A DNA stretch of 64,000 bases. Source: Nitrosopumilus sp. GTDB lineage: Archaea; Thermoproteota; Nitrososphaeria; Nitrososphaerales; Nitrosopumilaceae. Within the stretch, counting starts at the first letter, position 1. Each line of letters starts with the position of its first letter. Location of the stretch: positions 192,001-256,000 of the forward strand of contig OZ241981.1 in the NCBI GenBank assembly GCA_965204345.1. Direction: 5' to 3'. Shown piece after piece: positions 651 through 18,606 of this stretch. The position numbers and the translations under genes were made by a program. The notes beneath the pieces are model-generated. The model did no database searches and had not been told where the DNA came from. It saw only the letters and a program-made list of their open reading frames with translations.

Positions 651-1486
651 ATGAAAAACATAACAAACAAAACAAAAACAATACTGTTTGCATCTCTGAT
701 TGCCCAATGATATTGCCATTTAGCGGTATGGGAGTTGCAGAAGCAAAAGTAGATGAAATCAAATACACCAAATCAGAAATTGACAAATCCTTCAGAAATT
801 CAGAAGGTTATGTTAGTTATGAAAACAAGAACAACCAGATGAAAGTAGATATAAATAAAATGATCGATGATGGCATTGAAAATAAAGATATAAAAATCAT
901 GTCAGAGTGGGCAGAACTCCACAATAAAGTCATGATAGGACATATGAATGGAGATAAGGAAAAAACAGGTACTGCTTTGTTCGAAGCTGCAAATGGTCCT
1001 TTTAGCTATCTAGTAAATGCCAAAACAACAAAACTTGGATCAGTAGATGATAACATTAGTAATGTTTCATATGTTACACCTATTAGCTATTGGTCTTTAT
1101 CCGCATGCGGAATCACTTATGGCACTACTGAACATTCAGAACCACCTATCGAAATCTATCTTCATAGTTATCCTGATCTATCTTCTGCACAAACAGTAAT
1201 AGAAAATGATGGATATTATCAAGTGCAATGGCCTTGGATTGATTTTAATGATGGCGGAAAAGTTTATGCCAAAATAAACACAACAGGTTATGGTGATTGT
1301 ACTAGTGGCGAATTCAGAGATGAAAATCACATCTACGATGTATATAATGTCAAGGTCAACCATGTGTGGTATAAACCTGTTCTTAGTTTAGTACAGGTAA
1401 ACGAACCAAATCCTGATCTTGCTGCATATTCTGCACCAACATTTTGGTGGGATGTTTATGTTGCTACATGGCACTATGGCAACTAA
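651..1486 (+). pseudogene. Secreted Trp-rich protein (family copy 1), frameshifted in the signal peptide
   Basis: ATG at 651 gives MKNITNKTKTILFASLIA; GCC-CA-ATG versus GCC-GCA-ATG in paralog 61740..62555 is a 1-bp deletion near 705; C-terminal C..G.FRD...EPNP....Y..P.WW...Y...WH motif shared with the paralogs. Confidence 0.75.
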
Positions 1487-1512
1487 CCCCCTCTTTTCTT
1501 TTTTATTGAATC

Positions 1513-1773
1513 ATGAAAAAAATAATTAAAATCACGATAATCATTTTGAGTGTTATAGCATTTTTATTCTGTCTTCTTTTAATTGCCAATTATATTTTAT
1601 ACGAAACATGGGGCAGTAATGAGAATTTCTATATCCCACAAAACGGACAAAAAGTGAAATGTGATATTAATCTATTACAAAAACCTAGCAATTGCAGGAC
1701 TATAATTGATAATGAATTGACTGTGATACCAATTGAAGAATGGCCCAATCATGATATAAACCCCGAAAAATGA
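1513..1773 (+). CDS. Small membrane-anchored protein downstream of secreted protein copy 1
   Basis: N-terminal hydrophobic helix, two Cys, 26 bp after the upstream stop. Confidence 0.65.
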   Translation: MKKIIKITIIILSVIAFLFCLLLIANYILYETWGSNENFYIPQNGQKVKCDINLLQKPSNCRTIIDNELTVIPIEEWPNHDINPEK

Positions 1774-1812
1774 AACCATAATTAATAATGAATTGACTGT
1801 GATACCAATTGA
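1702..1812 (+). repeat. 35-bp direct repeat (1702-1736 / 1778-1812, one mismatch)
   Basis: ataatt(g/a)ataatgaattgactgtgataccaattga seen twice, 76-bp period. Confidence 0.9.
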
Positions 1813-1838
1813 GAGGTAATGTTTAATTTGCAGTGTTA

Positions 1839-2399
1839 TTAACTGCCTTGTTCCAGGTAGAAATACCTGTCAATCCTGACTGTTTTTATTTCGTTATCAT
1901 TGAAAATATCTCGTTTGGTCAGTATATAGTATCTTGAATTTTTCTTGTCAACCACACAATGCAGTCTGTAATTCATAAAAGCAAACAGTGGGTTGACAAA
2001 TACTAGATCAGATTTCAAATAAATTATACCGACAGCACACATGAATATCAGTATTGCCACCAAATCATTAATACCAAATGCGTCATGCAGGATAAATGGA
2101 ATCGTGTATGTCACAAAATACAACAGAAATTCCTTTGTAAGGTTAGAGTGGTGCCATACGACAATTGTCTTTTTTTCAGTCTTACTTGTTTTCATTTTAC
2201 GAATGAAAACCACTGCAAATAGTGCTGGAATCACGGTCATACATACAAGAAACAAAAACACCCCAAATTCTACATTGATCAAATCCCACTGAATCATGGC
2301 CTGATTGCTTGCCCAAAAGAAAAAAACCAATGTAAGCCATAATGGGACAAACGAGCTTAGAAACAACATCAGGCGTATGAGGGGATTTAGGTCTGACAT
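1839..2399 (-). CDS. KwaA-like four-TM protein (Kiwa anti-phage family-like), no KwaB adjacent
   Basis: LFLSSFVPLW...EFLLYFVTYTIPF...YLKSDLVFVNPLFAFMNYRL pattern typical of KwaA. Confidence 0.6.
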   Translation of the reverse strand: MSDLNPLIRLMLFLSSFVPLWLTLVFFFWASNQAMIQWDLINVEFGVFLFLVCMTVIPALFAVVFIRKMKTSKTEKKTIVVWHHSNLTKEFLLYFVTYTIPFILHDAFGINDLVAILIFMCAVGIIYLKSDLVFVNPLFAFMNYRLHCVVDKKNSRYYILTKRDIFNDNEIKTVRIDRYFYLEQGS

Positions 2400-2855
2400 G
2401 ACACATATGATATGTCGTTGCTGTTATTTGTAATTTGTAATTACTGTCTTTTTTGTAATAATTCAGGCTATTGAATGTGATTAGAACCACCATGGTTTGC
2501 CTGTGCGTTGTTTGTAAAAGTTATTTTAAATAGACATCAAGGTTTTGCATTTTCAAAGCGTGTTGAAATTATTGGTAGTAAGAGAGAGTCCTTTCCGTGT
2601 TTTAAGAGCAAGAAAAAACTAATGACCCCCAAAATTCTTATCCTTTTCAGGTTTTGGCCACAGATACACTGGTAATCAGTCTAGAACCGCTTGGAGCAAT
2701 TGCCAGCAATCAGCTATTTTATGGCAGTAATTTTAATTGAGATTCTGCCTGTTGCAAAAAATACATTATAACTAATCTAATACGTCAAAAAAAATCAGAC
2801 AGGGCTTGATTCTGTCTTAGGAATAGAAAGTTTTAGGTACTGATGATTTTTTTTA

Positions 2856-3827
2856 TTGTTATTGAAGGCAATTTTTGTCGCAATTCTTGCTGTGGGCGTG
2901 CTTGGATATGCGTGGTATTCTGACTTGCTGCCGTTTGCAGCAGATAGTTCTTCTGCGAGGCTCTCCCCATCCATGGAAAGCATCCAACAAATATCTGACG
3001 CGGTTACATCCAAAACCAATCAGATAATTTATTATTCTTTTGAGGATGTTCCTGACGTACCAGATAAGCAGATACCCCTTGATGCATTAAAAAAAGCAGT
3101 TGATACTTGGGAAAGTAATAACCCGCATATGGAATTCATAGAATCATCTAATCCTAACATTGAAATTAAATGGCAAAAATATGCATCATCTACGCATACT
3201 GGTCTTGCAACCTGTAATTCCGTTCTGTTTGGAATTTTAAGCCACTGTGTCTTAGACATTTCAATTGGTGCTAGAGATTGCAATTCAAATTTTGTACAAA
3301 GTGATGAAAACATGGTTGCAAACATCCTGATGCACGAAATAGGTCATGCCTTGGGATTGGAGCATACTGATGAACTTGATAATCTGATGTATTCTACAGA
3401 GTCGCCTAAAGCCTCTTTTAACTCAAAGGGTTATGCCATTCCAGAAAGATTTGAAGGATTATTTGTTGGTCAAAAAACGTTACTGTCAAAAGAAAATGAG
3501 CTGAAATCTGATATTGAATCCCTTGATATTGCAGTATCTCATGAACAGTTGCGATATGATCAATATTACAAACAGTATGAATATTATGATGGCAAAATTC
3601 TATCTTCTGAAGAGTTCAGAAAAGCTGAACTTGCGCATGAGTTGATCAGTGCACAAGTAAAAAAAATCAATGAGTTAATTGCTGAACAAAACGTGTTGAT
3701 TACTGAAGTTAATGACGTTGTAGATCAGCTTGGATGCAATCCAAACTTTGAAATTAAATCCCCTTATCCAAATAACAAAACTAGTCCTACTGCCAATGAT
3801 GCCACTGAAATTCCCATCCAAACATAA
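2856..3827 (+). CDS. Matrixin-family (M10-like) zinc metalloprotease, membrane-anchored/secreted
   Basis: HEIGHALGLEH motif plus Met-turn (NLMY); N-terminal TM; C-terminal coiled coil. Confidence 0.85.
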   Translation: MLLKAIFVAILAVGVLGYAWYSDLLPFAADSSSARLSPSMESIQQISDAVTSKTNQIIYYSFEDVPDVPDKQIPLDALKKAVDTWESNNPHMEFIESSNPNIEIKWQKYASSTHTGLATCNSVLFGILSHCVLDISIGARDCNSNFVQSDENMVANILMHEIGHALGLEHTDELDNLMYSTESPKASFNSKGYAIPERFEGLFVGQKTLLSKENELKSDIESLDIAVSHEQLRYDQYYKQYEYYDGKILSSEEFRKAELAHELISAQVKKINELIAEQNVLITEVNDVVDQLGCNPNFEIKSPYPNNKTSPTANDATEIPIQT

Positions 3828-10301: not shown

Positions 10302-11975
10302 TTAGGGGCTTGCTGTGGTAATTGCACCCTGTGCTGCTGAACCCACCAATGTTGCGTATTTTGCAAGAGCTCCTGATGTGTAGTTGGGTTCTGGACGTAT
10401 CCATTTCTGCCTTCTTTTTGCCAGCTCCTCTTCTGAAACATCGATATCGATAACTGTGGTTTTAGTATCTATTGTAATTTTGTCTCCATTTTGCACTAGT
10501 GCAATAGGTCCTCCGATATATGCCTCTGGTGCAACATGTCCCACCATGAATCCTCTAGTTCCTCCTGAAAACCGCCCGTCTGTGACCATTGCCACTTTTT
10601 TGCCCAAACCCTGTCCCACAAGAGCGGCAGTAGTTGCAAGCATTTCCCTCATGCCCGGTCCCCCCTTTGGCCCCTCATACCTAATCACCACAACATCTCC
10701 CTCTTGCACATCTCCCTTGGATACTGCATCAAATGCGTGTTCTTCTCTGTCATAGACTTTGGCCCTGCCTGTAAATCTGGTCATCTCTACTCCTGCAGTC
10801 TTAATCACTGCTCCCTCAGGTGCAAGGCTTCCCTTGAGTATCACTGCCGTTCCTACCGGGTGTATTGGATTCTCAACGGGCCTTATGATTGACTGCTCAG
10901 GCTCTGATATGTTCATTGCGTCAAGATTTTCTTGCATCGTTTTGCCTGTGACTGTAATGCAATCCACGTTTAGCAGCCTTTTGTCTGCCAACTTTTTTAG
11001 CACAAAGGGAATCCCTCCAATTTTGTCTAAACTGTTCATCACATAATTTCCGCCCGGCTTCATGTCTGCAATGTGTGGCGTCTTTTTTCTAATTCGTTCA
11101 AAGTCATCATAAGTCAGCTTGATTCTTGCTTCATTTGCCATTGACAGCAAATGCAGTATGCCGTTTGTTGATCCTCCAACTGCATTTAACATGACAATGG
11201 AGTTCTCAAAGGCCTCATATGTCATGATATCCCTCGGCCTGATGTTTGATTCTAATAGTTTTGCACATGCAGCACCGGTATCGTAGACCATCTTGCTGCG
11301 TCTGTCATCTTCTGCCGGGGGACTTGCACTTCCGGGCAATGCCAGTCCAATGGCTTCTGAAATTGATGCCATTGTATTTGCCGTAAACATTCCCCCGCAC
11401 GAGCCCGAACTTGGGCATGCGGTATTTTCAATATTTTTTAGCATCTCCAGGGATATCTGGCCTGCATCATATGCTCCTACTGCCTCATACACATCTACGA
11501 CAGTCAGTTCCTTGCCATCTAGGATTCCGGGCATTATTGTTCCCCCATAAACAAACACTGACGGCAGGTTCAATCTGGCCATTGCCATCATTGTACCTGG
11601 CAAACTTTTGTCACATCCTGCAATTCCTACAATTCCGTCGTATTGATGGGCCCTAACCATAAGTTCTATGGAATCTGCAATGACCTCCCTGGAAATTAAG
11701 GATGATTTCATGCCTTCGTGACCCATTGCAATCCCGTCACTTACTGCAATTGTTGAAAATATTCTTGGGGTTGCACCGTTTTGTCCAACCCCACGCTTTG
11801 CTTCTTCGGCCAATGCAGGCAATAATATGTTGCACGGTGTTGCCTCATTACCTGTGTGGCAAACGCCAATGAAAGGCCTACTGAGATCATCATCATCTAG
11901 TCCCATGGCCTTGTACATTGCCCTGTGCGGCGAACGAGCCGTCCCTCCTACAACATTCTGACTGGATATTTCCAT
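10302..11975 (-). CDS. ilvD: Dihydroxy-acid dehydratase
   Basis: [38 protein letters not shown] motifs. Confidence 0.97.
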
Positions 11976-12119
11976 AACATGTAATTTTTGGATTGCTATA
12001 ATTTAGACTTTATCTAGATTCTGAATCTCAGGATTTTATGCCTTGTGGGGGGAGGAGCAGGGAATCTGTTTTTAAATGCGGCACAATCCTTAATTTGTAT
12101 TAAATTCAATGAGAACAGA

Positions 12120-12242
12120 TTGGTTTGTCTTAGATGTGATGGAAAAGGTCAATACAAGAATGAGTTTGGAATAATGGAAAAATGTGAGTCATGTCAAAAA
12201 AGGGATATGACTTTTGAAAGGGCAGATACAGAGCCGGATTAA
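12120..12242 (+). CDS. Small zinc-finger protein (CxxCxGxG...CxxC)
   Basis: LVCLRCDGKG...KCESCQ; probable TTG start near 12120. Confidence 0.5.
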   Translation: MVCLRCDGKGQYKNEFGIMEKCESCQKRDMTFERADTEPD

Positions 12243-12309: not shown

Positions 12310-12507
12310 ATGGAACAAAAAACACTTGAATGTCCAGTATGCAAGAGTAACAAGGCAGAGATTGCAGGAGAAAATGTAAAACTGGGTGGCAGATTTGAAG
12401 ACAAGGAATTTCTTACTACTGAACTAACTGTTTTGCGGTGTACCCGTTGTGGATATTACATGTTTTTTGACAAAATGGCCCAGTTTACAACCAGGGATGA
12501 ACTTTAA
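12310..12507 (+). CDS. Zinc-ribbon protein
   Basis: CPVC...CTRCGY. Confidence 0.75.
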   Translation: MEQKTLECPVCKSNKAEIAGENVKLGGRFEDKEFLTTELTVLRCTRCGYYMFFDKMAQFTTRDEL

Positions 12508-12511
12508 GACT

Positions 12512-13108
12512 CTACTTGACGAGTTGCTGCTGATCTAACTGCAGCAAGTATCCTTCTATTTCTTCAGGTGTTTCATCACCAAATGTAATTAAAACCCTGT
12601 CGTCTTCTGTTATCTCATAGTCTCTGATATCTGATACCTGTTCCCTGTTGATGAAAAATTGCAGTGTATAGTCCTCATTTGTACAGAAAGATTTTCCATC
12701 TGGGAATACAAAACATTCATCATCTAATCCTATAGATAACGTTTCAAACAGATATCCCAAATCTACTCCTGTTGCATGCTTGTGAATGGTTGTTCCATCC
12801 CTTCCTTCAAAATGAATCCAGCTTGATTTGATTTGGAAAGCCGGACTTGAAAAGTCAAATGTATCTCCAAATATTTTTACTAGCAATGCTGCATGAGAGT
12901 GCTCACTTCCTAGTGCTCCTGCATCATCTGGTCCTCCCGGTACAGTCTCTGACATATTTACAAATATCCAAGCTGCATATCCCACTATAACTGCAATAAC
13001 TCCTAAAACCCCGATGGTAATCAGCATGTGTTTTCGTTTTTCAGCCGAGTGCTTGGTTGCGTAATTTTCGCGCTTTTCTTCACGACTACGCCTTTCTTTT
13101 CTGCCCAT
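12512..13108 (-). CDS. Conserved thaumarchaeal membrane protein (His-rich putative metal site)
   Basis: Basic N-terminus, TM helix, EHSHA...IHFE...TIHKHATG. Confidence 0.8.
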   Translation of the reverse strand: MGRKERRSREEKRENYATKHSAEKRKHMLITIGVLGVIAVIVGYAAWIFVNMSETVPGGPDDAGALGSEHSHAALLVKIFGDTFDFSSPAFQIKSSWIHFEGRDGTTIHKHATGVDLGYLFETLSIGLDDECFVFPDGKSFCTNEDYTLQFFINREQVSDIRDYEITEDDRVLITFGDETPEEIEGYLLQLDQQQLVK

Positions 13109-13384
13109 GAGACAATCAAACTCTAAAATTTACCCTAATTAACTTACTGTCCATTCCACCAATCAAATATTGGATACTTGATCGGCAATAAATTTTGGAA
13201 TCTGCATCATTGATCATATCCTCAAGAATACTCTTAGGGAATTTGAATTAGTTTCATGATTTTTTTTGCTTTTTTAATTTGATTTGCTCAATCCTGATTT
13301 TTTTGCAAGACTATGAAAACGACTGTTGTTCATGGATGGAAGGGTGTGCTATGCTGTATGAACTGCAATCAAATCTATGAGTTT

Positions 13385-14530
13385 CTACATTTTATCTATT
13401 TGAATTAATTGATCATACAGATAGGCCTGTTCTGCAAGTAGATTTTTCATCTGTTTTCCCTCATCGCTGTTCTTGCCATATTTTGACACTAGTTTTTTAC
13501 ATTCATTTCTTTTTTCTATATCTTCTAATGCAGATAAATTACGTAGTTTATTGAGCATCTGTTTTGTTTTTTTGGTTATCGTTTCTGATTCAATTCCATT
13601 AAATTTTTTCAGAATTAATTTGACCATTACTTTAATCAATAAAATATCAGCCACATGAGCATAACTGGGATAACGTCTATTTCCCAACATCTCTTTGGCA
13701 AATTTTTGAAATCGTCCTTGATAAGAAAGATTTAATTTTATTTGATTATTTGTAATCAATATTTTATCTGAAAAAGTGTCAAGATCATCTGACATTTCTT
13801 TAAAAGTTGGGGGATTTTCTTTAAAATAAGTTGTCTCATCCAAAGAGATTTTTTCAAAAGTATCAATTATCATCTCCATTGACAATTCACCTGTAACTGA
13901 TTTTAACAAAGTTGCAATATCATAGATTTGTTTTGGTACATCAAGTTCCCTCCTATGATCTATTCCTATTGTGTTAAACGGAAGAGCTGTCGATTTATCG
14001 CCAATCAAAGATTCACGATCATAAATAGACAAAGGAAAATTTATTCCGAGTCCCATAATTTCAGTTTTATTTTTTATTTTCTTTGATTGAATTTGCATAT
14101 TGTTTCCATAAAAAATTTCAATTTTTATTTGAGGATTTTCATCAACTGAGGACTGATAGTCACAAAAATATGTCAGCAGCGGTAATGTTTTGTTACTATT
14201 TCCTTTTGGGATATGTGGTTTGCCAATTTCCACTTTACTTTTGAGTTTTTCTGAAACTATTTTCATTGCTTTAACAATTTCTTCCCTAGAACTGCCTGTT
14301 ACAATATCAATATCTACGCTCAATCGTCGTAGTGTTCTGTCATGAAGATGAAAAGGTACTGCCATACCGCCTTTAACAACACAGTCAGGGATTACTTTCT
14401 GAATGTGGGTTAGCATTTCAAAATCCATTATGAATTTTTCTAACAGCGATGCATCTCTAAATCCATAAGATTTTCTAATTGTGTCAATGTGTTCTTTATT
14501 CAAAATGTCTTTAAAGTGCAGTTCTACCAT
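13385..14530 (-). CDS. AbiEii/AbiGii-family nucleotidyltransferase toxin
   Basis: LEKFIMD, VKGGMAV, RRLSVDIDI, KIEI, K.IYDI motifs. Confidence 0.85.
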   Translation of the reverse strand: MVELHFKDILNKEHIDTIRKSYGFRDASLLEKFIMDFEMLTHIQKVIPDCVVKGGMAVPFHLHDRTLRRLSVDIDIVTGSSREEIVKAMKIVSEKLKSKVEIGKPHIPKGNSNKTLPLLTYFCDYQSSVDENPQIKIEIFYGNNMQIQSKKIKNKTEIMGLGINFPLSIYDRESLIGDKSTALPFNTIGIDHRRELDVPKQIYDIATLLKSVTGELSMEMIIDTFEKISLDETTYFKENPPTFKEMSDDLDTFSDKILITNNQIKLNLSYQGRFQKFAKEMLGNRRYPSYAHVADILLIKVMVKLILKKFNGIESETITKKTKQMLNKLRNLSALEDIEKRNECKKLVSKYGKNSDEGKQMKNLLAEQAYLYDQLIQIDKM

Positions 14531-16448
14531 CAAAGCTCATCTCCCAAAATGTTTCCAAGCAACTCTAATTTTTTGATAAACTTTGCATAGGTTTGTAAAT
14601 TTTCATAATCGATCAAGTTAGATCTTTTCATCGTTGCAAACATTCGTCGTAGTTCTAATTCGTCTAATTGGCCATGATACTATGTGTTTCATTTACTAGA
14701 TCAAGAAATGCTTTTTCAGGGGTGGCTATTGTGGAGCCCCTAATTACTGCATATTCTCTTATGGCGATAACTCTTTTAGTAGTAGGTATTTTTAGGAATA
14801 TCCCCAGTACCTTTCTATCTGATGCATGTATTACGTCGAATTTTTGGTGAAATTTATCTGCCAATAATTCTGCAAGATATTCTCCCTTTGCAGGCTCTGT
14901 GTAAAGTGTATAGGTTAGTTTTCCACGCAAGTTATGCAGGTACGGGGTGAGTGTAGTTAACGCAGTAAACTGGAATTTGAATCCAAAGTTTTCTTTGAGA
15001 TGGTCATGAACTTCAATTAATTCATCTGTTAATTTGTAATTTGGTATGTTGGGAATGCCAACTTCTCGGTCTCTAAAAATCTCTTTTTTATTACTTTTTT
15101 CTGACCATGTATTTAGAAATCCTTTGATATCCTGATTTCTTTTTTCCAATAATTTTTCAAAGTTTGGATTTTCTCCAAGCAATTTTATTTCTGAGGCAAT
15201 TATGCCAATGAGAAACAAGGGGTTTTTTACAAATCTAAATGAATCATCATCTTTGTTTATCGTTACTTTGATGTCTGAATTATTTTTTTCTATAATGTAC
15301 AAGGGCTTGTTTTTAAGTGATTTTATGCCTATTTCTACCAAATTACCGCCTATTTTCATTTCAAAAGGCTCTGTGTTATCTAGCAGTTCCTGTGAAACCT
15401 GAGAACGTACGCTGCGTTCTAGATGTTGTGCTGAAGAATTCTTATTAAAATAAGCAAAGACGGATTCAACAGATACTGTGCTTTCACTTTTAGATTTTGA
15501 TGATTGTATTGTTTGCTTGAATGCAGGTGATAACTTAAAAGCATTAACTGCTTTTTTATATTCTGAACTTTCTTCAATGAAGGCACTCTTGCTGAAATTT
15601 ACAGGAACATGGTCCATATTCAATTCTCCAACTATCTTGGCATTTTCCGGATGTGCGGGAAATCCAAATTTTTCAAATGCTTTTATCAGCCTTCCATGCC
15701 TAAACAAATGCATTCCATAATCTCCCTTTATCGAACGTTTCTTCAATAATGCAACATAACCACTAATTTTTTTTCCAAATCCTAATTCAAGCTGAATGTT
15801 TTTTTTACTTTCTTCTACAATATTTGGCTTTTTAGGTTTGCAAAATACACTATTGATTTGGATTGAAACTTGGTTTGTTTCCAAGTAAGGAAAATAACGT
15901 ATGCCAAAACTTTCTTTGAATTTTGAAACTTGGTTTGGGTATAACGGCACGTTCAACTCAGAAATTATAATTCTTGTTCCATGCCAGTCTTCTCTTTCTT
16001 CTGTTAGAGTTTTTTCAGTAATGACAAAATTTCTCCAGTTTTGCGCTTTATCAGATAGCCAATTTTTTTCATCATATTCTGTACGATATTCTTTGTTGGA
16101 GTTAATTTTAGATGTAGTAACAGTGAATTTTTTTCCTAATGCAGAACATGCACTTTTCATTCCAATTCCAAATTGTCCCAATTCATCGTCAGCTTTTGTC
16201 CCCTTTGCAATAGTCATTGCATTTGTCAGATCTTGCTTATCCATTCCATTACCATTGTCTCTCACTTCGATCCATTTTTCTTGGAAATCCAAATGAACTT
16301 TGATTGTTCCTTTTTCATCAGAAATTCTAGCATCTATAGAATTATCTAACAATTCGGCAACTGCTTGTTCTGTTCTATATCCGGCAAAACCCAATTTTTG
16401 GACAAGTGATTTGTCTGGTGTGATATCTACCTGAATATTGCTATCCAT
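14530..16448 (-). CDS. GHKL (HATPase_c_3/MORC-like) ATPase fused to an AbiEi-like C-terminal domain; frameshift near 14670
   Basis: ELLDNSIDA, DNGNGM, GQFGIGMKSA, GT motifs; C-terminal IATPEKAFLDL; alternative frame continues DELELRRMF...GDEL* and its TGA overlaps the AbiEii ATG. Confidence 0.8.
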
Positions 16449-16464
16449 ATAAAAAGAACTTAAA

Positions 16465-16572
16465 TCTAGAATTAAAGGCTTTTTCTAGATATATGCTCAT
16501 ATTGAGCCTGCATGCATTAGATATACAAATTGTATACATTTTATATGTCTAGAAAATGCTCATTTTTCTAGA
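16465..16572. promoter_or_regulatory. Two 25-bp inverted-repeat operator-like sites, TCTAGAA-N11-TTCTAGA
   Basis: 16465-16489 and 16548-16572, directly upstream of the ATPase start. Confidence 0.6.
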
Positions 16573-16928
16573 TTTAAATTCATTAGTTAAATACTAAATT
16601 TTTAAAGTAATATCTAAACAAGTCAAAAGACCATGAATTAAAGGCTCTGTCTATCTTTATTGAAAGTGTTGATCCTTGATCGATATTGTTGTTGACAAGA
16701 TATCTTTGTATCGCCCATCAAATGACATTCTATGTGGGTTGCAAGGAAGGATTTATTCATGATTTTGTGTGGTTTGAGATATTATCCTCAAAAAGATGCA
16801 TGCATTGTGGGCAAGAAGAAAGATGAAAAGTCTTTTGGATTCGCATTCTACACCTAAATTGTGCCTGTTCCTCAAAAAATCCTTCTGACTAGTCAAAACA
16901 ATAAATAAAATTACAAAATGCTATCTTT

Positions 16929-17333
16929 ATGGGTTGTATTTTTTGTGATATTTTGGATGAAAAACGCGAGGGTCATTTTATTTATGAAGATGATTCACAT
17001 GTTGCATTTTTAGATAAATATCCCATTGATGTGGGTCACAGTCTAGTAATTCCACGAAAACACCATGAGCGAATCACCGATATGGACTCCCAAGACGTTG
17101 GGCGCCTGTTTGCAATAGTTCCAAAAATTGCAAAGGCCGTCTTAGAAGCTGCCGGGGCAGATGCCTTTAGTCTTGGTCAAAATAATGGCCGTGCAGCCAA
17201 ACAGATCATCCCTCATGTCCACATCCATATCATCCCCCGCTACAATGCCAAAGGGACTGTGTGGACAAAACGTCAAATTGCAGATGGCGATGAGCTTGTA
17301 AAACTAGCTGCTAGAATTCGTAGTCTTACTTAG
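16929..17333 (+). CDS. HIT family hydrolase
   Basis: CIFC and HVHIHIIPR. Confidence 0.95.
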   Translation: MGCIFCDILDEKREGHFIYEDDSHVAFLDKYPIDVGHSLVIPRKHHERITDMDSQDVGRLFAIVPKIAKAVLEAAGADAFSLGQNNGRAAKQIIPHVHIHIIPRYNAKGTVWTKRQIADGDELVKLAARIRSLT

Positions 17334-18606
17334 AATGGCCTGGGTTGTACCTTAAAATCGCTCCAATTTTTCCCAGACTTGCCAGATTGTTTCCATGCTC
17401 TGCACTTCCTGAAATAACCTCTAGTTGAGTACCCACCTTTGCTGCAAGTAGTTCCAAATAATCTACAATGTCTTGTTCACTTGTCTCTACTTCCATTGCG
17501 TTACATTCAGGACATGGCTTGTTGGCATATTCTGTTTTTTTTGGAATAACTAGGGGCCTTTCTACTATCTCTTCTTGGATATGATTACATCGTTTGCACT
17601 TGCCCTCAACTCTGTGCAAGTTAGTGTTATCTGTAATTAACAAAATACTGACTACGTTATTTTTTAGGTATTCTATGACTTCTTGCAATCCGTATGATCC
17701 TTTTCCCGTGTTGGTGTTTATCTCACGAAACAAATCTTCGACTAATTTTTTCTCTTCTACCATTCTGAAACTTCCCAAGATATCTGATGATTTTTCAAAT
17801 GCTTCCCTAATTCCTTCTGATCCCGAATATGATGCATCAATCGTGCTGATGATGTTATTTTGCAATCTGTATTCCAAATAATTACCGTTGATGAAATCCT
17901 CTTTTGTAGGACCAGGACCCGAAATTATCAGTCCTTTGACCGGATAAATATCGATAAAAAATTCTCTTGTCGTTTGTGCAACCCTGTTGTAAAAATAATT
18001 TAATTCCATCTCTCTTAATTTCTGGAATCTTTTTGCAGATTGTCCTCCTTGCCTGTGCTTTCCTGCTACCCCTGACCCCGTATGATCTAACACTTCGATC
18101 TTATCCCCCTGCAGCAATCCCCATCCTGCGTCTTTTGCATCTATTGCTAAAAATCCTATAAGATTGTCGTCTTTTAGCATGTCTTTGAGAATATCTACAT
18201 GAAAATGATCATCGCATCGGTACAGATACTGATTCAAGTCTTTAGGAGGATCAACTTCCCATACTGTAACTACTTCACTTCCTAGTGGTCCCCCTTCTTC
18301 TGGAGGCAATGCCCCGCAGAACATCACCAATCCTCTCTCTGGAGTTTTCTTGTATAGTTTTAGCCTTTGTACAACTTTTCCTAGGGAATCTACCACATGT
18401 GATCTTGTGAGATCTGATTTTATGTTATCTGCCGTACCCTGTTCCTGTTGAAGCGAACTGATTATTTCATGTAGTTGCTTTCCCTTTGGAATATACACCG
18501 TAATAAGCTCTGTGCCTCTGCCTGATTTTTTTGATAATTCCTCAAGCGTTTTTCTGATTTTGTAGAGTTTTACTGAATCCTGTTTCTCTATGTTAATTTT
18601 GCCCAT
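17326..18606 (-). CDS. prf1: Archaeal peptide chain release factor aRF1
   Basis: NIKS, YRCD, GGQS motifs. Confidence 0.97.
   Translation of the reverse strand: MGKINIEKQDSVKLYKIRKTLEELSKKSGRGTELITVYIPKGKQLHEIISSLQQEQGTADNIKSDLTRSHVVDSLGKVVQRLKLYKKTPERGLVMFCGALPPEEGGPLGSEVVTVWEVDPPKDLNQYLYRCDDHFHVDILKDMLKDDNLIGFLAIDAKDAGWGLLQGDKIEVLDHTGSGVAGKHRQGGQSAKRFQKLREMELNYFYNRVAQTTREFFIDIYPVKGLIISGPGPTKEDFINGNYLEYRLQNNIISTIDASYSGSEGIREAFEKSSDILGSFRMVEEKKLVEDLFREINTNTGKGSYGLQEVIEYLKNNVVSILLITDNTNLHRVEGKCKRCNHIQEEIVERPLVIPKKTEYANKPCPECNAMEVETSEQDIVDYLELLAAKVGTQLEVISGSAEHGNNLASLGKIGAILRYNPGHSK

Follow-up and report, generated by a model that had tools for sequence, protein, structure and literature searches.

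A candidate AbiE-type cassette with an ATPase-fused antitoxin in Nitrosopumilus

Introduction

What might an ATPase be doing on an antitoxin? The question is raised by a two-gene cassette from Nitrosopumilus sp., found in a stretch of 64,000 nucleotides (GenBank assembly GCA_965204345.1, contig OZ241981.1, positions 192,001 to 256,000) that we call the window and whose first letter is position 1 of the coordinates below. One gene of the cassette (gene 1) joins a MORC-like GHKL ATPase module to a domain homologous to the toxin-neutralizing part of AbiEi antitoxins; the other (gene 2) encodes an AbiEii-family nucleotidyltransferase. We think it somewhat probable that the two form a mobile AbiE-type toxin-antitoxin (TA) or abortive-infection cassette in which the antitoxin is fused to an ATPase that gates neutralization.

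Toxins of the AbiE/MenAT type are among the commonest TA and abortive-infection modules, and recent work suggests that reversible toxin phosphorylation has a part in the release of their neutralization. A neutralizing domain joined to a MORC/MutL/Hsp90-class ATPase would offer a direct handle on how neutralization is released; the ATPase cycle can be mutated and the effect on toxin control measured. Such a system would give a first functional context to many archaeal "ATP-binding proteins" and to Pfam DUF6577, and the ATPase-controlled defense toxins would gain a GHKL-based member. It would also document moving, decaying defense or addiction cassettes in ammonia-oxidizing archaea, whose immunity is little known.

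Results

Architecture of the gene pair

Both open reading frames (ORFs) lie on the minus strand, head to tail, and gene 2 begins with ATG. Their parts are as follows.

14664..16448, minus strand: gene 1 as present in the window, 594 amino acids (aa) ending in a premature TAG; GHKL-S5 ATPase plus truncated AbiEi-type C-terminal domain
15954..16448, minus strand: GHKL (Bergerat-fold) ATPase domain, about residues 1-165 (Pfam HATPase_c_3, model of homologue P0001, Foldseek)
15537..15953, minus strand: S5-fold transducer-like domain, about residues 166-304 (Pfam Morc6_S5, Foldseek)
15042..15536, minus strand: middle alpha/beta domain and low-confidence linker, about residues 305-469 (secondary structure of the P0001 model, confidence dip at 450-461)
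14667..15041, minus strand: AbiEi-type C-terminal domain (DUF6577-like), its N-terminal three quarters (FQFTALxTL, IREY and ATPEKAFLDL motifs)
13385..14530, minus strand: gene 2, AbiEii/DUF1814 nucleotidyltransferase toxin, 381 aa, frame intact (Pfam, PADLOC, motifs)

An earlier note, made from the letters of the window alone, had named gene 2 an AbiEii nucleotidyltransferase, and family models agree. Pfam AbiEii matches it with 52.8 bits (E 7e-14; cut-off 22.5), and the PADLOC AbiEii model PDLC02299 covers residues 8-341 (E 1.1e-27). The GG, RRLSxDxD, DK..T and PKQxYD motifs are kept, and the residues invariant in 27 aligned partners (G54, G55, R69, S71, D73, D75, K179 and D204) are all present in the window copy. 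These invariant residues match G49/G50, D67/D69 and D192, which were mutated in Streptococcus agalactiae AbiEii as described by Dy et al. (PMC3985639). The phosphoacceptor given for that toxin is T65, two residues ahead of the first Asp (bioRxiv 10.64898/2026.01.19.700257); judging by its position in the motif, the Ser of RRLSxDxD may be the equivalent residue.

The first part of gene 1 is matched by Pfam HATPase_c_3 at residues 24-127 (E 3.8e-22; 79.2 bits, cut-off 25) and then by Morc6_S5 at residues 197-304 (E 4e-5), which with 24.1 bits falls slightly under its cut-off of 26.2 and exceeds it in several related metagenome proteins. The translation contains the Bergerat motifs ExxxDNxxD, DxGxG and GxxGxG together with a TTS motif. 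The columns that carry the ATP-binding motifs are invariant in 64 homologues (D35, N36, D64, G68, G91, G94, G96 and T112), which, with the HATPase_c_3 match, bears out the earlier statement that gene 1 holds all GHKL motifs. P0001, the closest intact homologue (638 aa, 85% identical to gene 1 of the window), gave a full-length AlphaFold model with a predicted local distance difference test (pLDDT) of 84.4 and a predicted template modeling score (pTM) of 0.50, the latter owing to a low-confidence linker at residues 450-461. When this model was compared with the PDB using Foldseek, human MORC4 ranked first (7k7t, E 5.4e-17), and the other top matches were mouse and human MORC3, SMCHD1, MORC2 with DNA (9cdj, 9cdh) and Hsp90/TRAP1. 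The alignments to the ATPase modules of MORC4, MORC3 and SMCHD1 extend over about 380 columns (E 5e-17 to 6e-16). NCBIfam and PADLOC returned matches to MzaB, MutL and histidine kinases that are limited to the GHKL core and lie far under the cut-offs. Taken together, the Pfam, motif, model and Foldseek evidence indicates that the N-terminal ~300 residues of gene 1 are a MORC-like GHKL+S5 ATPase module. With family matches this strong, neither gene is an ORF that arose by chance.

The ATPEKAFLDL motif sits near the C-terminus of gene 1, and the earlier note had read this region as AbiEi-like. The profile comparison and structure prediction that it proposed as checks have now been run. An alignment of 30 C-terminal domains (A2) was used as a profile against 1.84 billion representatives and recovered 200 proteins at E<=1e-3, headed by fused forms of ~620-670 aa and followed by proteins of 230-310 aa. 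Pfam places an AbiEi_4 winged helix-turn-helix (wHTH) followed by DUF6577 in 11 of 34 of these matches (E<=0.01), and different helix-turn-helix (HTH) domains (TrmB, DeoR) followed by DUF6577 in several others. The PADLOC AbiEi models cover the full length of three of the stand-alone proteins (E 1.4e-21, 3.9e-18 and 3.4e-26) and give weak C-terminal matches (E 3e-4 to 1e-3) in four of the five fused proteins tested. With hhalign, A2 aligned to 22 stand-alone AbiEi_4+DUF6577 proteins with a probability of 99.9% (E 6.2e-33, 162 columns), falling on the part behind the wHTH (columns 71-234). Pfam DUF6577 itself (PF20217, gathering cut-off 27.8 bits) does not match the truncated gene 1 of the window; over residues ~470-635 of seven intact homologues it reached 28.1 bits in P0046, stayed below the cut-off in four and found no match in two, and one metagenome copy of the fusion scored 31.3 bits.

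A model of the C-terminal domain (pLDDT 86.1, pTM 0.82) was compared with 48,161 PDB representatives by VIA. The top match was S. agalactiae AbiEi, 6Y8Q (Z 9.5), with a root mean square deviation of 3.0 over 123 residues, model residues 26-190 aligning to residues 57-195 of the chain, after its N-terminal wHTH. MenT1 came next (Z 7.2), and the AbiEi homologue Rv2827c (1ZEL) reached Z 6.1. By profile-profile comparison, modeled fold and the stand-alone proteins that bridge to the PADLOC AbiEi models, the C-terminal domain of gene 1 is homologous to the toxin-neutralizing domain of AbiEi antitoxins, as the earlier note had held. Nucleotidyltransferase-fold matches rank just under 6Y8Q, which suggests that the AbiEi domain distantly resembles it. 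Separately, matches to T_Ag_DNA_bind at residues ~512-568 (E 1e-5 to 2e-3) were rejected as spurious; their position is within the AbiEi-type domain, and most score under the cut-off.

Between the two ends lies the middle domain, for which Pfam found no match in gene 1 or in the seven intact homologues, and for which an Atlas feature search returned unnamed clusters only, at 0.91. When the middle region was aligned by hhalign to the wHTH part of stand-alone AbiEi proteins, the probability was 0.2%. At E<=1, neither gene 1 nor any of the seven intact homologues matched an HTH family, a search that a strongly diverged winged helix within the middle domain could escape. As far as sequence methods tell, the N-terminal wHTH of AbiEi is absent from gene 1, and the GHKL-S5 module and middle domain are there in its place; in terms of architecture, the proposal that an ATPase replaces the usual wHTH agrees with these results.

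Conservation and distribution of the gene pair

We scanned one genome per species and classed ORFs with hidden Markov models built from our gene 1 and AbiEii alignments. This yielded 48 loci, all but one in Nitrosopumilaceae and other Thaumarchaeota. The 3' end of gene 1 is present in 39, the other 9 being contig ends or fragments. The pairing with AbiEii is conserved: directly downstream of gene 1 there is a full AbiEii gene in 31 of the 39 loci, a truncated one in 4 (L006, L012, L022 and L039) and none in 4 (L009, L033, L035 and L044). Across related loci, the gene 1 stop and the toxin start overlap or abut. Gene 1 is intact in all eight loci in which the toxin is truncated or lost. Loss of the toxin before the antitoxin is the usual direction of TA decay; the lesion of the window, described below, goes the opposite way.

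A database protein search with gene 1 gave 423 matches at E<=1e-3, the best 120 of which are mostly 633-670 aa long; their sources label them just "ATP-binding protein" or "hypothetical protein." Matches at E<=1e-40 occur in 23 of 201 sampled genomes of the family (20/144 high-quality genomes; 8/27 genera), with up to five per genome. The distribution is patchy, and the fusion is clearly not a peculiarity of this assembly, a doubt that the earlier note had raised against itself. The genome of the window has a second gene 1 paralogue (G000:C1:799885-801762; locus L050, minus strand 1498..3417), 47% identical and with an intact frame of 639 aa, whose downstream AbiEii is an 85-aa N-terminal remnant (1176..1433).

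One database homologue is labeled Acidoferrales bacterium, so the fusion may not be confined to archaea. A metagenome scan based on GHKL/S5 patterns returned mostly other architectures and is no measure of how frequent the fusion is in bacteria. Four of its loci match gene 1 over the full length (L052-L055); DUF6577 is present in all three that were scanned for it (L052, L053 and L055), and the ORF downstream is AbiEii in both loci in which it was scanned (L052 and L053).

The same scan turned up GHKL-S5 modules in other layouts (L057-L131), 30-43% identical to the first ~300 residues of gene 1. The fused forms include one of ~680 aa that has Sigma70_r4 and Bac_DnaA_C HTH domains, one of ~420 aa to which a PEP-utilizers mobile domain is attached, and one of ~548 aa whose C-terminus is assigned to no family. 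Genes following such related modules encode a Trypsin_2 peptidase, Hypoth_Ymh, Schlafen-AlbA_2, a ResIII helicase and a WYL regulator. These contexts fit the idea that GHKL-S5 is a reusable ATPase module of conflict systems.

Insertion of the cassette

The evidence for insertion comes from empty sites in relatives, base composition and the extent of DNA similarity, which together delimit one feature.

13144..16662, no strand assigned: inserted AT-rich cassette with both genes, ~3.5 kb

The guanine-plus-cytosine fraction is 0.285-0.345 across ~13200-16800 and 0.36-0.49 in the flanks. Similarity of the window to related loci at the DNA level is limited to ~13355..16634, the flanks being unrelated. 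Four genomes of the same genus were examined, and three have an empty site (G183, G203 and G209; loci L138, L140 and L141) in which window position ~13143 meets ~16663 or ~16896 with ~50-60 nucleotides (nt) in between; in the fourth, the left flank differs. The cassette is an insertion of ~3.5 kb, since its flanking sequences are adjacent in these three genomes. The empty sites place the left border to within a few bases, after ...CCCTAATTAAC. At the borders we found no target-site duplication or terminal repeats, only 8-10-nt matches at chance level, and no integrase was seen adjoining the cassette. Given the empty sites in relatives and the patchy distribution, the two-gene cassette appears to be mobile.

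Going by their translations, the neighbors look like ordinary archaeal genes: presumably a dihydroxy-acid dehydratase (10302..11975), a HIT-family protein (16929..17333) and what we take to be aRF1 (17326..18606). The earlier description of a two-gene AT-rich insert among housekeeping genes therefore matches base composition, ORF positions and empty sites alike. Outside the insertion, on the plus strand, lie two adjacent ORFs of 65 aa with paired, zinc-ribbon-like CxxC motifs (12045-12242 and 12310-12507); the second is inside a stretch that is kept in relatives (window 12310-13143).

Frameshift in gene 1

In the window, gene 1 is split between two frames.

14678..14679, minus strand: site of a net one-base deletion (alignment with nine relatives; sequencing runs X5 and X6 versus X1)
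14533..14679, minus strand: out-of-frame rest of gene 1, 49 codons, ...QLDELELRRMF...GDEL, corresponding to the final three helices of the AbiEi-type domain

Intact homologues are ~638 aa long and read ...ATPEKAFLDLVNETHSHDGQLDELELKRMF...GDEF. Gene 1 of the window ends with ...THSIMAN and a TAG at 14664-14666, and a homologue-like continuation, YHGQLDELELRRMF...GDEL, runs in the second frame, 74% identical to P0001 residues 585-637. DNA alignment with nine relatives locates one missing base, net, at 14678/14679, so the frameshift that the earlier note had put near 14670 is real. Its claim that the gene 1 stop overlaps the gene 2 start holds in the restored frame, where the TGA (14530-14532) and the gene 2 ATG have one A in common (TGATG at 14532-14528).

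The deletion site is not a homopolymer. Contigs of runs X5 and X6, from two other studies, have an extra G behind 14678 (plus strand) that restores the frame; the X5 contig otherwise differs from the window by 23 letters and 3 gaps across 4001 bases. The contig of X1, the probable source run (depth 165), agrees with the window at 14678. Because X5 and X6 are in frame and X1 matches the window, the lesion is specific to the strain or sample. An assembly error is unlikely given the nature of the site and the agreement of the separately assembled X1, which is not an independent sample. Programmed frameshifting was rejected, since the reading frame is continuous in nine relatives and in two near-identical strains. 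The frameshift is damage particular to the window strain, not a trait of the system.

The deletion takes ~44 residues, the last three helices, off the antitoxin domain and breaks the TGATG stop/start coupling, and for these reasons the window copy is probably impaired or decaying. The 49-aa out-of-frame piece by itself had no matches in Pfam, NCBIfam or PADLOC.

Other features of these contigs deserve mention. The remaining one-base gaps of X6 all fall in runs of T and are presumably sequencing errors. At an A8/T8 homopolymer within gene 1 (15798-15806), X5 has an additional TT, which would shift the frame, and X6 lacks one base; these indels may be sequencing errors, or a sister strain may carry a further lesion of independent origin. 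A contig of 773 nt from a sponge metatranscriptome (run X13) agrees at all but one position with 15659-16431, the 5' half of gene 1, and may be a sign of expression in situ, with DNA carry-over possible.

Upstream region

Before gene 1 lies a further conserved feature, defined by an alignment of 10 upstream regions and by inverted repeats I2 and I4.

16449..16634, minus strand: conserved promoter/operator-like region with palindromes

About 190 nt 5' of gene 1 are conserved in blocks among the 10 aligned loci. They contain a perfect palindrome, TCTAGAAAA-N7-TTTTCTAGA, at 16548-16572; a palindromic TATACAAATTGTATA around 16518-16551; and a palindromic TTAAATCTAGAATTAA adjoining the start codon of gene 1. 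Relatives with 65-80% DNA identity have all three elements, which are candidate operators for a dimeric regulator.

Discussion

How might such a pair work? From the homologies described above we infer a toxic gene 2 product, its neutralization by gene 1, control through phosphorylation, a sensing role for the ATPase and a part in defense. The C-terminal domain of gene 1 (last ~170 residues) would bind the toxin, as AbiEi does, and would hold it off in the manner of S. agalactiae AbiE and MenAT, probably via induced auto-phosphorylation of the invariant Ser in RRL-S-x-D-x-D. In S. agalactiae, the AbiEi C-terminal domain is described as "sufficient for toxin neutralization" (PMC3985639), and AbiEi is reported to bind AbiEii and to induce an auto-phosphorylation that abolishes nucleotidyltransferase activity (bioRxiv 10.64898/2026.01.19.700257). 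The ATPase cycle may decide whether the toxin can engage the antitoxin domain. MORC-type GHKL ATPases dimerize on ATP and clamp DNA; ATP-dependent dimerization or clamping of the GHKL-S5 module would tie neutralization to a signal, which could be invading DNA, a phage protein or a nucleotide state. Upon infection, neutralization would fail and the toxin would halt translation.

Several observations weigh against this reading of an ATPase-gated AbiE cassette. A truncated antitoxin beside an intact toxin frame should harm the cell if the pair is active; either the truncated protein still works, or the toxin is poorly translated once the stop/start coupling is gone, or the second paralogue protects the cell, or the toxin is inactive. 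The truncated gene 1 has no direct match to the Pfam AbiEi models, and DUF6577 matches 18 of 30 C-terminal pieces at E<=1 (best 2e-7), mostly below the Pfam cut-off. Foldseek also ranks 6Y8Q first for the C-terminal domain but weakly so (E 0.046, probability 0.89, template modeling score 0.42), and the profile of this domain searched against PDB sequences found no AbiEi, only a single chance match at E 0.83. Plasmid and phage collections gave one and three weak matches, respectively, to the GHKL part only, with no record of the fusion. The conserved palindromes are also compatible with a purely regulatory gene 1. Prediction of a complex from the AbiEii and C-terminal domain alignments gives weak support for binding: it scored 0.47 against 0.00 for the best control, contacts coincide between runs to at least 85%, and the partner has a pLDDT of 81 or higher. 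Of 157 solved complexes, 116 reach the mark applied, as do 2 of 215 mismatched pairs; with scores of 0.60 or less, it is reached by only 18 of the solved complexes and by both of these mismatched pairs. Since a similar complex has already been solved, the pass may reflect nothing more than that likeness.

If the palindromes are operators, the GHKL-S5-middle module could be a dimerizing, DNA-binding repressor of the operon that replaces the wHTH and senses nothing, with neutralization constitutive as in ordinary AbiE. Three conserved elements within ~190 nt in 10 aligned loci would suit such a role, as would DNA-bound MORC2 (9cdj, 9cdh) among the top structural matches and the Sigma70_r4 and DnaA_C HTH domains of some related GHKL-S5 proteins; in canonical AbiEi, according to PMC3985639, autoregulation goes through the wHTH, and repression requires the C-terminal domain as well. 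Yet neither Pfam nor hhalign detected a sequence-specific DNA-binding domain in gene 1, a different regulator could occupy the palindromes, and an ATPase of ~470 residues would be costly in place of a wHTH of ~60. GHKL-S5 clamps, moreover, are not known to be sequence-specific in binding DNA, and we regard a repressor as an unlikely explanation. The invariant Ser invites another account, in which the GHKL domain is a protein kinase acting on it and the AbiEi-type domain is a docking module. This Ser is unchanged in 27 AbiEii partners, AbiEii and MenT toxins are described as being shut off by phosphorylation beside the catalytic DxD (bioRxiv 10.64898/2026.01.19.700257; PMC11375011), and the GHKL superfamily does include kinases, with weak NCBIfam matches of gene 1 to histidine kinases, RsbW and SpoIIAB (E 0.002-0.1). 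However, sequence and structure alike place gene 1 nearest to ATPases of the MORC, MutL and Hsp90 kinds, which have an S5 transducer, and not to kinases. No kinase is needed either, because the S. agalactiae toxin phosphorylates itself while AbiEi binds no nucleotide, as reported in bioRxiv 10.64898/2026.01.19.700257; a kinase role is very improbable.

A more serious competitor concerns only the window strain: whatever the family does elsewhere, this locus may be a nonfunctional, decaying relic, a prospect to which we give slightly less than an even chance. Gene 1 is frameshifted, the second copy in the genome keeps gene 1 with its toxin reduced to a remnant of 85 aa, the toxin is truncated in 4 and lost in 4 of the 39 related loci, and run X5 has a +2 indel in the T8 run at 15798, possibly a sequencing error. 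On the other hand, the toxin frame and every conserved motif are intact, the 594 codons of gene 1 are free of further lesions and retain 85% identity to P0001, near-identical strains are in frame at the deletion site, and a contig from an RNA library covers 15659-16431, even if carried-over DNA could account for it. One may also ask whether there is any conflict system here, or rather a housekeeping nucleotidyltransferase, modifying RNA or a small molecule for example, with an Hsp90-like ATPase as its chaperone or regulator. Hsp90 and TRAP1 are indeed among the top structural matches, and some DUF1814 proteins have no linked antitoxin, as stated in PMC3985639. Such a role sits poorly with patchy occurrence (23/201 genomes), with insertion into a conserved syntenic site, with genes that are AT-rich, multi-copy and often decayed, and with the specific homology to AbiEi and AbiEii; we hold it to be extremely unlikely.

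Returning to the ATPase-gated AbiE cassette, a bolder version is conceivable, though we find it doubtful. The pair would then represent a new ATP-gated AbiE class, in which a MORC-like clamp senses a sign of invasion (foreign DNA or a viral protein, for example) and, by dimerizing on ATP, withdraws the antitoxin domain or, acting like a kinase, sets the phosphorylation of the toxin, and in which GHKL-S5 is a swappable sensor. If so, a phosphorylation-controlled TA pair would have become a triggered immune switch in ammonia-oxidizing archaea, including sponge-associated ones, and the same sensor module would be exchanged among proteases, Schlafen-like nucleases and helicases.

Comparison with known systems

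Among named entries of the defense libraries, gene 1 is closest to MzaB of the MZA anti-phage system (NF041932, PDLC02204). The match is confined to the GHKL core in the first ~120 residues: at residues 21-128 it covers 110 of 480 profile positions with 54.6 bits against a cut-off of 850, so gene 1 is not a member. Running PADLOC, as the earlier note had advised, identified gene 2 as AbiEii and left the fused gene 1 without a model; version 2 has none for such a protein and gives weak partial matches to MzaB and AbiEi. Makarova et al. (2013) described DUF1814-COG5340 with an HTH antitoxin only, and we found no description of a GHKL-AbiEi fusion in the openly accessible literature searched. Provisionally, then, the ATPase-AbiEi fusion, which is widespread, is apparently undescribed, and none of the three refuting outcomes listed in the earlier note has come up.

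The ATPase half of gene 1 resembles the prokaryotic MORC and paraMORC proteins. As characterized by Iyer, Abhiman and Aravind (2008; PMC2292703), these have an N-terminal GHKL domain with ATP-binding motifs followed by S5, and the fold, the motifs and the S5 domain behind GHKL are all found in gene 1. Their distribution is likewise sporadic and laterally mobile. The contexts given there are restriction-modification-like, whereas the neighbor of gene 1 is an AbiEii gene; the main text of PMC2292703 contains none of the terms "nucleotidyltransferase," "COG2253," "COG5340" and "DUF1814."

MenA-MenT/TakA-TglT of Mycobacterium tuberculosis (Rv2827c-Rv2826c, Rv1044-Rv1045) also combines an AbiEi-like antitoxin with a DUF1814-type nucleotidyltransferase toxin that is controlled by phosphorylation, but its antitoxin bears no ATPase and its sequence similarity to the cassette is remote. 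Closer are the stand-alone proteins of AbiEi_4 (PF13338) plus DUF6577, 230-310 aa long, whose C-terminal domain is homologous to that of gene 1 by hhalign and which share with the fused proteins the motifs F-x-x-T-G/A-L, RE and A-S/P-E-K/R-A-x-x-D-L; they differ in having the ordinary wHTH antitoxin layout.

The nearest known system is AbiE itself (AbiEi-AbiEii of S. agalactiae and Lactococcus), classed as type IV in PMC3985639 and proposed as type VII in bioRxiv 10.64898/2026.01.19.700257. Like the cassette, it is bicistronic, with the antitoxin gene first and a stop/start overlap; its toxin is a DUF1814/AbiEii protein with GG, S/T-x-D-x-D, K and D motifs, and its antitoxin shares the C-terminal domain by profile and by fold. 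Toxin family, neutralizing domain (the last ~44 residues being out of frame in the window) and operon layout are thus those of AbiE. In contrast, AbiE antitoxins begin with a wHTH, which gene 1 lacks, having instead ~470 residues of MORC-like GHKL ATPase, S5 and middle domain, and the cassette belongs to an archaeon of the Nitrosopumilaceae and is known here from its sequence. On this comparison, the cassette is better described as an AbiE variant than as a canonical member.

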